Assembly: GCA_047619205.1 (NCBI GenBank)
Contig: JBLHJR010000006.1
Coordinates: 77 to 64,076 of the forward strand
DNA: 64,000 bases
Source of the DNA: Candidatus Endobugula sp.
GTDB taxonomy: Bacteria; Pseudomonadota; Gammaproteobacteria; Pseudomonadales; Cellvibrionaceae
Direction: 5' to 3'
Part shown: positions 28,807-50,120 of the stretch, one piece after another
Layout of the letters: each line of letters opens with the position of its first letter
Position numbering within the stretch: the stretch's first letter is position 1
The notes under the pieces: generated by a model
Database searches by the model: none
What the model was told of the DNA's origin: nothing
The model's input: only the letters and a program-made list of their open reading frames with translations
Program-made: the position numbers and the translations under genes

Positions 28807-29039
28807 TTTAACCTAGAAACGACCGTTGGCGCGAAAAAGCGGTGCAAGTTATTGGTGTGCAGAGGACTTTCCCTAGCAACATAAGTTAGTATCGCGTAGC
28901 GACCTTATTGGTCGTGAGCGAATGGTAAGATTTTCTAGGTGCATCAATAACTTGTGCAGACTTTGCCTACAGGGATGTAGGTAAGGGGCGTGAGCAGGAG
29001 CGGAAGCTTTCGTGATTCAACTGCCGTTTCTAGGTTAAA
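28807..29039 (+). mobile_element. MITE-like element, copy A
   Basis: Perfect 14-bp terminal IR tttaacctagaaac/gtttctaggttaaa; internal IR caagttattggtg/catcaataacttg; about 85% identical by manual alignment to the reverse complement of 29787-29959. Confidence 0.85.
28961..29010 (+). repeat. 42-bp insert flanked by CTTT direct repeats, with a GGGA-loop hairpin
   Basis: Present in copy A, absent from copy B; hairpin ttgcctaca-ggga-tgtaggtaa at 28963-28984. Confidence 0.8.
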
Positions 29040-29086
29040 CACAGGGAACAGGGAGCCGACGCAGCAAGCGTAGAAAAAGTGCTTTG

Positions 29087-29731
29087 TTAGAGAGTCCCTA
29101 AAGCAATATCTTCCTCGTCTGCCTTATCCGCTAAGAAAGTATCGAGCACATTAACTAGCTCTTTTACTCCTTCATTTTTTAATGCGGAAAATAATTGTAT
29201 CGATACCAAGTCATCGACTTTGGCCTCTCGCAGATGCTTCTCTACCGCTAACAAGGTGTTTTTCGCCGCGCCTTTTTTGAGCTTATCGCTTTTGGTGAGC
29301 AAAATATGCACAGACATTTCCGCCTCTGCAGCCCAATTTAGCATCATCGTATCGAACTCTTGCAGGGGATGTCGAATATCCATCAATAAAATCAAGCCAC
29401 GCAAAGCATCACGGTTTTGCAAATATTCAGAGAGGTTCTTATCCCACTCTCGCTTCATAGCGATAGGGACCTTGGCATAACCATAACCCGGCAAATCAAC
29501 CAAGCAATGCCCGCTATCTACGCTAAAATAGTTAATAAGCTGCGTTCGCCCAGGAGTCTTACTGGTACGTGCTAGTTTTTTATTGTCCGTCAACGTATTG
29601 ATAGCACTAGACTTACCGGCATTCGAACGGCCAGCAAAAGCCACTTCAGCACTGACAGAGGTCGGACATTGGCTTAATTTGGCAGAGCTTTGTAAAAAAG
29701 TGGCGCTTTCATAGGGATTCTTACGTGACAT
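29087..29731 (-). CDS. yihA: Ribosome biogenesis GTPase YihA/EngB
   Basis: [28 protein letters not shown]. Confidence 0.97.
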
Positions 29732-29786
29732 AAAACCTCAAAAATGGTGTGTTATAAAGGGTTAGTATATAATCTTGCCCATCAAG

Positions 29787-29959
29787 CTAGAAACGGCAGC
29801 TGAATCACGAAAGTCTGTACAAGTTATTGATGCACATAGGGAATTTTAGAGTTCACTCACGACCAGTAAGTTCGCTACGCGATTCTAACTTATGCAGCAA
29901 AGGAAAGCCCTATACACCAATAACTTGCACAACCTTTTCGCGCCAGCGGCAGTTTCTAG
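29787..29959 (-). mobile_element. MITE-like element, copy B (inverted relative to copy A)
   Basis: 173 bp; CTAG ends; 14/16 terminal IR ctagaaacggcagctg/cagcggcagtttctag. Confidence 0.85.
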
Positions 29960-48634: not shown

Positions 48635-49714
48635 TTACCGCTTTTCAAAGTGTTTTTGCGTTAACTTACCCGCATCAGATGCTGGCAAATCCCAACCTTG
48701 TAAATTATCTTTCACCAAGGCCGTCAAAGTAGCAATATGTTCTTCGCTCGCATTTAGCGCTGCAATATATTCATAGCGCTCGCCCCCCGCCTGTATAAAA
48801 TAGTCACGATTTTCTTCACCAATTTCTTCGATTGTCTCTAAGCAATCGGCAGAAAAACCCGGGCAAACGATTTGAACCGTCTTAACACCGTCTGCAGGAA
48901 AACCCTGTAAGGTGTGATCGGTATACGGCTTTAACCATTCTTCACGCCCAAAACGTGACTGAAATGTAGTCATATATTCAGTGGCGTTTAAACCTAAACG
49001 CTCTGCCAATAAACGCGAAGTTTTATGACATTCACAATGATACGGATCACCATTTTTCAAATAACGTAAAGGGATACCGTGATAGGAAAACAACAATTTA
49101 TCTGCCCGCCCATACTCCTCCCAATGCACTTCGATACTATTTGCCAAGGCCTCAATATACGCAGGGTAATCATGATAATGGCTAATAAAGCGCAAGTCGG
49201 GTAACCAACGACGACGCATAAAATCTTCCGCTAGCGCATCAAAAGTAGAGGCCGTAGTAGCCGCCGAATACTGTGGATACAAAGGCAATACGACTAATTT
49301 TCGTACACCCTCTTGCTGCATAGCTTCTATGGCATGGCTCACTGATGGCTGCCCATAACGCATAGCAAACTTCACTACTACATGCTCGCCGTAAATAGCG
49401 TGTAAAGATTTTGCAAGTGCGTCACATTGCTGCTGCGTGTGCACCATCAAGGGGGAACCTTGCTCTGTCCACACCGTTTTATATGCCGCCGCCGACCGTC
49501 GTGGGCGAAGTCGTAAAATCACCCCATGCAAAATACATCGCCACAATAATCTCGGTACCTCAACCACTCGAGGATCAGCTAAAAACTGCCCCAAATACTT
49601 GCGCAACGCTTTAGCCGTGGGAGCTGTTGGCGTGCCTAAATTGGTAATTAACACCCCTATTTTAGGCTGCTGCTGGTGAGAAAAATTAGTTTGGCCAATA
49701 TATTTCATAGTCAA
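48635..49714 (-). CDS. hemH: Ferrochelatase
   Basis: NLGTP, AMRYGQP, LPLYPQYS, SYHGIP, FQSRFG, FSADCLETIEE. Confidence 0.96.
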   Translation of the reverse strand: MTMKYIGQTNFSHQQQPKIGVLITNLGTPTAPTAKALRKYLGQFLADPRVVEVPRLLWRCILHGVILRLRPRRSAAAYKTVWTEQGSPLMVHTQQQCDALAKSLHAIYGEHVVVKFAMRYGQPSVSHAIEAMQQEGVRKLVVLPLYPQYSAATTASTFDALAEDFMRRRWLPDLRFISHYHDYPAYIEALANSIEVHWEEYGRADKLLFSYHGIPLRYLKNGDPYHCECHKTSRLLAERLGLNATEYMTTFQSRFGREEWLKPYTDHTLQGFPADGVKTVQIVCPGFSADCLETIEEIGEENRDYFIQAGGERYEYIAALNASEEHIATLTALVKDNLQGWDLPASDAGKLTQKHFEKR

Positions 49715-49777: not shown

Positions 49778-50120
49778 ATGTTAGATACCCGTAAATGTTA
49801 CTGCCCCTATTGTGGTGAAGCGATAGAAATCGTCGTTGATACTTCGATAGAACAGCAAGAGTATATTGAAGATTGCTCTGTTTGCTGTCGACCTATTTAC
49901 CCGTAACGCTTGAACTTTAGGTGTTCAGAGTGCGTCTTTTTTTGTTTGTGGCAAGGCGCGACGACGCAAAATAGCCATTCTATTTAAGGAGGAGCAACGC
50001 AGCCACGAACAAAAATAGGCGTGCTATGGAGGCCTAAAGCTCAAGTGCTACGGGTATACCATCAACGCCAGCGTTAATGACACAGGCGCCTTAATTGAAG
50101 TCCGCAGCGAAAATGAGTAG
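49778..50120 (+). pseudogene. CPXCG cysteine-rich protein gene split by a MITE
   Basis: 5' part [40 protein letters not shown]; 3' part TINASVNDTGALIEVRSENE*; removing the insert restores one 61-aa ORF. Confidence 0.9.
49898..50056. mobile_element. MITE with long terminal IRs and TA duplication
   Basis: 54-bp arms 49898-49951/50003-50056, 42/54 complementary, ends TACCCGTA...TACGGGTA; TA at both junctions. Confidence 0.9.

Follow-up and report, generated by a model that had tools for sequence, protein, structure and literature searches.

The window analyzed here is a 64,000-nt stretch of DNA corresponding to C6:77-64076, a portion of one contig in a 3.04-Mb genome (G000) that comprises 132 contigs and is 97.6% complete, with 2.7% contamination. 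Within it, a small gene of the CPXCG family (PF14255) is split by a MITE, just upstream of a cbiX-like gene and divergent from hemH. The features of this locus are as follows.

48635-49714, - strand: hemH (ferrochelatase; PF00762), divergent from the CPXCG-cbiX pair
49778-49897, + strand: native 5' part of the CPXCG gene (PF14255), codons 1-40 (M..CCRPI), with the CPYCG and CSVCC motifs; identical to three uninterrupted alleles described below (L050-L052)
49898-49906, + strand: read-through into the MITE, TAC CCG TAA (Y, P, stop); the present ORF is 49778-49906, 42 aa
49898-50056, + strand: MITE of 159 bp, TACCCGTAACG...GCTACGGGTA, with arms at 49898-49952 and 50002-50056; its ends were set by analogy with the copies in a Cellvibrionaceae MAG (G043)
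49944-50010, + strand: core module of the MITE, comprising a closing stem, a 5' strand AAGGCGCGACGACGC (49953-49967), a covarying apical hairpin (49968-49985) and a 3' strand AAGGAGGAGCAACGC (49986-50000)
50057-50060, + strand: extra bases TACC, missing in the empty site; the reverse complement of the last four bases of the element, GGTA
50061-50120, + strand: orphaned 3' part of the CPXCG gene, INASVNDTGALIEVRSENE followed by TAG (ATC AAC ... GAG TAG), without a start of its own; 100% identical to L050 and L051
50127-50501, + strand: cbiX-like small chelatase gene, 124 aa (PF01903, 81 bits), with its ATG 6 nt past the CPXCG stop codon

The CPXCG frame opens with the ATG at 49778 and, just as the initial annotation had read it, stops at the TAA at 49904-49906 after 42 codons with its Cys motifs kept. 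Residues C9, P10, C12, C33, C36 and C37, invariant in the family, are all present. Nineteen C-terminal codons persist at 50061-50120. An ORF scan for + strand frames of at least 20 aa with a start codon gave none that covers this remnant, and reading of the sequence showed its frame to be open from 50019 only, with ATG, GTG and TTG absent before 50061. Deletion of 49900-50056 (157 bp) joins the two parts into an in-frame ORF of 61 aa ending CCRPIYTINASVNDTGALIEVRSENE. Scored against the PF14255 profile (cut-off 25.2 bits), the joined frame gave 63.6 bits over profile positions 2-49 of 52, versus 56.5 bits over positions 2-34 for the truncated frame. Because the joined frame outscores the truncated one, the downstream piece contributes real homology, and the kinship of the reconstructed ORF with Cys_rich_CPXG proteins, which had been named as a check, was confirmed. 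The family is full-length in 241 database relatives. The arrangement of a CPXCG gene with a small cbiX-like gene a few bases behind it, the pair facing hemH, was seen in five genomes, all of this genus. As a general functional clue this linkage was rejected, since it is restricted to the genus and the gene occurs in other contexts elsewhere.

The inserted element has the hallmarks of a hairpin. Its 55-nt arms form an inverted repeat with 78% complementarity, and its predicted fold (-82.3 kcal/mol) is far more stable than those of shuffled sequences (-42.6 +/- 4.2 kcal/mol; z = -9.4), with none of 200 shuffles as good. The sole ORF within it is a 25-aa chance frame. Iterated nhmmer searches of the same genome found ~14 copies of the family, 119-285 bp in length, on 11 contigs and nearly all flanked by TA. 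Hairpin statistics, family copies and the PF14255 match together bear out the earlier proposal that a MITE lies inside a CPXCG gene. The window copy shares 76-77% identity with the remaining copies in G000, and its best match (83%) is a copy in G043. A near-identical donor copy was found neither in the window's own assembly nor in JGI metagenome contigs. Related genomes carry the family in larger numbers, with 43 cores in G043 and at least 21 copies in an Exilibacterium MAG (one genome, held as both G020 and G044) of the same GTDB family as the window's genome. Among the ~14 copies in G000, 3-5 have the core seen in the window, and the rest combine the common terminal repeats with another interior (e.g. 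...GTGAGCGGAAGCTTTG...). Shared ends with differing interiors indicate that ends and interiors are modular. One core-bearing copy, at G000:C26:5364-5523, sits exactly between hscB and hscA in the isc operon; joining its flanks gives a single frame open across both. Rfam searches with the window copy and eight core-bearing loci returned only chance matches to plant-miRNA hairpins, and blastn of a plasmid collection gave no match to the element.

Alleles that lack the element, the search for which was a check named in the initial annotation, came to light in a search with the protein encoded by the joined frame. This recovered a protein of 60 aa with 97% identity (P0001), encoded on three independent contigs from JGI 3300054976, Logan SRR28416802 and JGI 3300041951 (L050, L051, L052). 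The neighbors are alike on all three, in the order DUF4344, hemH, CPXCG, cbiX and then hisA/hisH. Identity of the flanks to the window is 99.8-100% on the left and 96.9-99.0% on the right, and L050 and L051 are identical to the window over the 180 nt before and the 80 nt after the site. Across the site, the empty allele reads CCTATTGTTATCAAC. More distant relatives tell a similar story. An intact CPXCG orthologue (63-66% identity) is present in five of eight same-genus genomes, in the hemH/CPXCG/cbiX setting; the same-genus orthologues carry V at the insertion position (ATT GTG, ATC GTA; RPIVVNA), and the element family was found in none of the eight genomes. Searches for the occupied allele in other records, by exact look-up of the 42-aa product and by scanning metagenome contigs with window-specific 22-mer and 35-mer element probes, gave no match. 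The three uninterrupted, near-identical contigs argue that the insertion is both real and recent, and the 3' remnant, still 100% identical to intact alleles, has had no time to decay. Judged from these sequence comparisons, then, the MITE insertion is recent, as the suggestion of a fairly recent transposition had anticipated.

Comparison of the two alleles defines the junction. The empty site reads CGA CCT ATT GTT ATC AAC (R P I V I N) within the 60-aa frame (CCRPIVINASVN). The occupied site reads CGA CCT ATT-(163 bp)-ATC AAC, with the 159-bp element and TACC standing in place of GTT. The initial annotation had held that excision restores a 61-aa ORF. Removal of 157 bp does give 61 aa in frame, but the natural empty allele encodes 60 aa and reads RPIVIN, not RPIYTIN. 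A TA duplication at this copy had also been claimed. TA does occur at 49898-99 and again at 50055-56, bracketing CCCG...CGGG (49900-50054). Copies in G043, however, read TA/TACCC...GGGTA/TA (slashes mark the ends of the element), as do most copies of the family, and one copy in that genome (L191, on G043:C94) reads TT/TACCC...GGGTA/TT. With TT on both sides of L191, the duplicated pair falls outside TACCC..GGGTA, an arrangement shared with Correia elements. This suggests that pairs other than TA can be duplicated and that the element proper runs from TACCC to GGGTA. By this alignment of ends, the two TAs of the window copy are the element's own termini. Under the G043 definition, the window copy has TT outside its left end and TA outside its right end, and there is no TA at the join of the empty site. 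Duplication of TA, TT or TTA was considered as a path from the empty to the occupied site and rejected, as at least two extra events are needed under either definition of the ends. A 2-bp TA target-site duplication is therefore seen at the level of the family but not at the window copy, where no 2- or 3-bp model fits, and the claim for this copy had to be dropped.

Similar terminal irregularities were observed at other copies. At G000:C15:50181-50194, GGGTATACCC lies within a palindrome, TAGGGTATACCCTA, beside another copy of the family. Tail-to-head end fragments (GGGTA/TACC(C)), comparable to window positions 50057-60, were also seen by the right flanks of L183, L188 and L193. Such fragments could arise if a hairpinned end were opened off centre or if abutted ends were cut; sloppy repair and self-targeting are other possible sources.

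Which transposase might mobilize the family? In G043, we identified an IS630-family IS (L201) whose beginning reads ...CTCTA/TACCCGACACACATGAAATTTAGGTGTAAATC, with TA/TACCCGACACACATGAAATTTAGGTG ahead of the transposase gene; this terminus is clearly homologous to TACCCAAAACACTTGAGATTTAGGTGTT at the end of the MITE. DDE_3 (121.6 bits) and HTH_33 domains were recognized in the 322-aa product of the IS. At TA sites, MITE copies interrupt the transposase genes of other copies of this IS, their likely partner, both in G043 (L205:261-444) and in the Exilibacterium MAG (L049:1445-1522). The homology between IS end and MITE terminal repeat makes an IS630-type mobilizer likely, in keeping with the IS630/Tc1-type mobilization originally put forward. 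The window's own assembly contains no DDE_3 match, no tblastn match to the G043 transposase and no pair of terminal repeats at IS-like spacing. Given the lack of a transposase in this assembly, the enzyme would have been supplied in trans by a source that is unassembled, has been lost or was transient. In a further genome (G042), the right end of an IS630 element resembles the end of the core-bearing MITE in that genome.

Taken together, these data make it very probable that the locus records a recent, imprecise insertion of an IS630/Tc1-mariner-type MITE into the CPXCG gene. A non-autonomous, protein-less element of 159 bp with long terminal inverted repeats would have entered codon 41 of the 60-codon zinc-ribbon gene, the first of the CPXCG-cbiX pair, with the transposase supplied in trans. 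Integration would have been imprecise, the target GTT being lost and TACC, which mirrors the element terminus, being gained at the right end. The CPXCG frame now ends after 42 codons, leaving a stub that is probably non-functional, and expression of cbiX would probably be lowered by an early ribosome stop combined with a very stable stem, of the sort cleaved by RNase III in transcripts that bear Correia elements. Several points count against this reading: the absence of a cognate transposase or full-length IS from the assembly searched, the distance to the nearest other copies (83% identity at best, and 76-77% within the genome), the non-canonical junction, the presence of the occupied allele in a single record and the lack of terminator- or promoter-like sites in the element. 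The event itself is of an ordinary kind, an IS630-type MITE disrupting a small gene.

To assess the consequences for the protein, we modeled the product of the intact allele with AlphaFold, using 52 aligned relatives. The model (pLDDT 92.9) has five strands, at residues 2-8, 15-21, 26-32, 39-47 and 50-57. Truncation after residue 40 spares every invariant Cys, whereas the fourth and fifth strands of this model are lost. No solved relative was found by sequence or fold (best Foldseek E 0.75). The model suggests that the stub is probably unstable or inactive. The 3' remnant, having no start codon, is untranslatable alone. Translation of the CPXCG frame now stops ~220 nt before the cbiX ATG, versus 6 nt in the intact allele, and the Shine-Dalgarno-like site of cbiX is weak (GAG). 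A scan of the element for promoters and terminators found none, and no T-run follows the stem. In Correia elements, RNase III processes the stems within transcripts (PMC10969869). By analogy, a polar effect on cbiX is plausible, and could come about through lost translational coupling, Rho or cleavage of the RNase III type.

The same features bear on whether the insertion has been kept because it is useful, either by tuning cbiX or by leaving a working 42-aa metal-binding peptide. The stub retains the invariant Cys residues together with CPYCG and CSVCC, a copy of the family sits between hscB and hscA, and Correia elements are known to change the expression of neighboring genes (PMC10969869). 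Yet two of the five predicted strands are gone, the element has no promoter- or terminator-like site, and the interrupted allele was seen once, against an intact gene in three related assemblies and a full-length family in 241 relatives. On this sequence evidence, we regard a useful insertion as quite unlikely.

Slightly less credible is that a metagenome assembler joined the element into the gene. The draft nature of the genome (132 contigs, 2.7% contamination), the repetitive character of the element, its non-canonical junction and the lack of the allele from other records would all be compatible with such an artefact. Nevertheless, a single 66-kb contig carries both halves of the gene, correctly ordered and oriented on either side of the element, and gene and element share no k-mer able to mislead an assembler. 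Moreover, the window copy is unique in the assembly (no more than 77% identical to other copies) and so was not borrowed from another locus. Least probable of the readings is an ancestral insertion, with the three empty alleles arising by excision: IS630/Tc1-type elements do move by cut-and-paste, and a footprint could in principle explain the allele differences, but the empty alleles have ATT GTT (I-V) like same-genus orthologues and the usual length of the family, removal of 163 bp with exact re-creation of GTT would be required, the element family was found in none of the eight same-genus genomes searched, and the 3' remnant has not diverged at all from intact alleles. A recent insertion is hence the reading we retain.

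The interior of the element proved to be of wider distribution than its ends. We searched species-representative genomes with a core pattern (GCGACRACRC, 17-22 nt, AGGMGGAGCAACRC) and found at least 120 stretches, L053-L132 among them, lying between unrelated terminal repeats. Hosts among the matches listed include Burkholderiales, Rhodocyclales-type genera, Pseudomonadales and Cellvibrionaceae, as well as two Thermoanaerobaculia contigs, two Holophagae MAGs and one Omnitrophota MAG. Single matches in Desulfobulbus and Anaerolineales MAGs are also among those listed; their arms are of the Burkholderiales type, so these two may represent contamination. Outside the core, the arms differ wholly between groups. 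Several elements are flanked by CTAG, the classical IS630 target.

Conservation and structure in the core were then examined. Within the window's family, the core strands are best conserved, with a majority fraction of 0.96; the terminal repeats reach 0.88-0.91 and the inner arms 0.80-0.86. Across the wider set, columns covered by the search pattern are conserved by ascertainment, but GGCAAGGC, which lies outside the pattern, just upstream and before GCGACGACGC, is near-invariant as well. Apical hairpin and closing stem covary (CATAG/CTATG, CGGGC/GCCCG, TGTGG/CCACA), and RNAalifold found compensatory changes in 15 of 20 pairs, although hairpin MITEs are palindromic regardless. RNAalifold also pairs the two 'loop' strands with each other, through invariant G-C pairs interleaved with tandem G.A/A.G mismatches. 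A covariance model (R1), built from 28 non-Correia cores, scored 83.3 bits on the window core, at G000:C6:50020-50086 (window 49944-50010). Neither R1 nor the core pattern gave a match at 28807-29959 of the window, around yihA.

This core resembled that of the Correia element of Neisseria, and the two were then compared. The 1987 paper on gonococcal PIII, in which the repeat is described, contains CAAGGCGAGGCAACGC. Within the GTDB order Burkholderiales, 11, 228 and 157 copies of CAAGGCGAGGCAACGCCGTAC were counted in three genomes (G096, G149 and G238 being the set), and the copies fetched from them (L173-L180) are textbook CREEs, TATAGTGGATTAAATTTAAATCAGGACAAGGCGACGAAGCCGCAGACAGTACAAATAGTACGGCAAGGCGAGGCAACGCCGTACTGG...CCACTATA, with ends that agree with those published (PMC2649163). 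Model R1 matches 72, 102 and 10 CREE copies over its full length, at ~32 bits and with E-values of ~1e-4 to 2e-5 per genome. An intermediate form was found in a Pseudomonadota MAG (L080), which combines the window's exact core strands with an apical hairpin like that of Correia; 46 of 55 positions (84%) agree between it and the Correia core, with 0 of 2000 shuffles as good (z ~20). Direct alignment of the window element to Correia was weak, 33 of 2000 shuffles being as good, so the link between the two rests on the profile and the intermediates. Through these sequence comparisons, the window core is homologous to the Correia core.

The two elements are alike in general build. Like the window element, Correia has a long form of ~155-160 bp, is TA-ended and usually flanked by further TAs, folds as a hairpin over its whole length and can disrupt genes. 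The centres of both consist of CAAGGCG(CG)ACGA(C/A)GC, a short hairpin and AAGG(A/C)G(G/A)(A/G)GCAACGC. In contrast, the terminal repeats are unrelated (TACCCGTAGCGTTTGAGATTTAGGTG in the window versus TATAGTGGATTAAATTTAAATCAGG in Correia). The 26-bp Correia terminal repeat TATAGTGGATTAA... is absent from the window, where the ends read TACCCGTAACGCTTG..., and neither the IHF site nor the promoters described for Correia were found in the window element. The hosts differ too, Correia belonging to Neisseria and the window to a marine-type gammaproteobacterium in the family of the Exilibacterium MAG. CREE has been described as unique to Neisseria, with its mobilization mechanism undetermined (PMC5039591, PMC2649163). 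A literature search found no report of Correia-like cores outside this genus. The CREE-rich genome G149 harbors a 905-bp IS630-family IS (L202:1057-1961; 11 copies in the genome) with two overlapping ORFs, HTH then DDE_3. Its terminal repeats (TATAGTCAATTAAAA...; 28 nt, TATAGTCAATTAAAAACAAAATGG...) resemble the Correia repeat noted above. This IS is a candidate mobilizer of Correia elements.

Two other known systems were compared. Like the window element, RUP of Streptococcus pneumoniae is short and non-coding, has ends that resemble those of a resident IS630-family IS, and prefers TA; it also often inserts into IS transposase genes, the pair described being RUP and IS630-Spn1 (PMC2229807), and insertions of this kind were seen in the window's family. 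The sequences of RUP and the window element are nonetheless unrelated. To our knowledge, no conserved internal module has been reported for RUP. ERIC (MITEEc1) is likewise a TA-ended hairpin MITE, of ~127 bp, that can lie within transcripts and change mRNA fate (PMC10969869). The initial annotation had compared the window element with ERIC. Blastn with 11-base words and E up to 10 against 5,426 complete E. coli genomes gave no match, which speaks against such kinship; the nearest described element is Correia/CREE, by way of the core.

These comparisons lead to a broader and more tentative proposal, for which we would put the chances somewhat short of even. The central ~50 nt may be a previously undescribed, strongly conserved, structured module, built on two near-invariant 15-nt strands around the covarying hairpin, that lies between differing IS630-type ends in Gamma- and Betaproteobacteria, Acidobacteriota and an Omnitrophota MAG and includes the Correia core.

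At the locus itself, both alleles are available, which opens the functions of the uncharacterized CPXCG family and its partner cbiX to comparison between near-isogenic wild strains. The unusual junction, with 3 bp lost and 4 palindromic bp gained, indicates that integration of such elements is not always clean. If the proposed module has been selected, be it for mobilization (as a hairpin or cruciform, or for binding of a host factor or transposase) or for a role as RNA, a Correia-like superfamily spanning phyla would be defined, and a handle on how Correia elements move would be gained. Through its core, this marine MITE is linked with dozens of MITE families that have other ends and with the Correia elements, all sharing one conserved module and a connection to transposases of the IS630 type.
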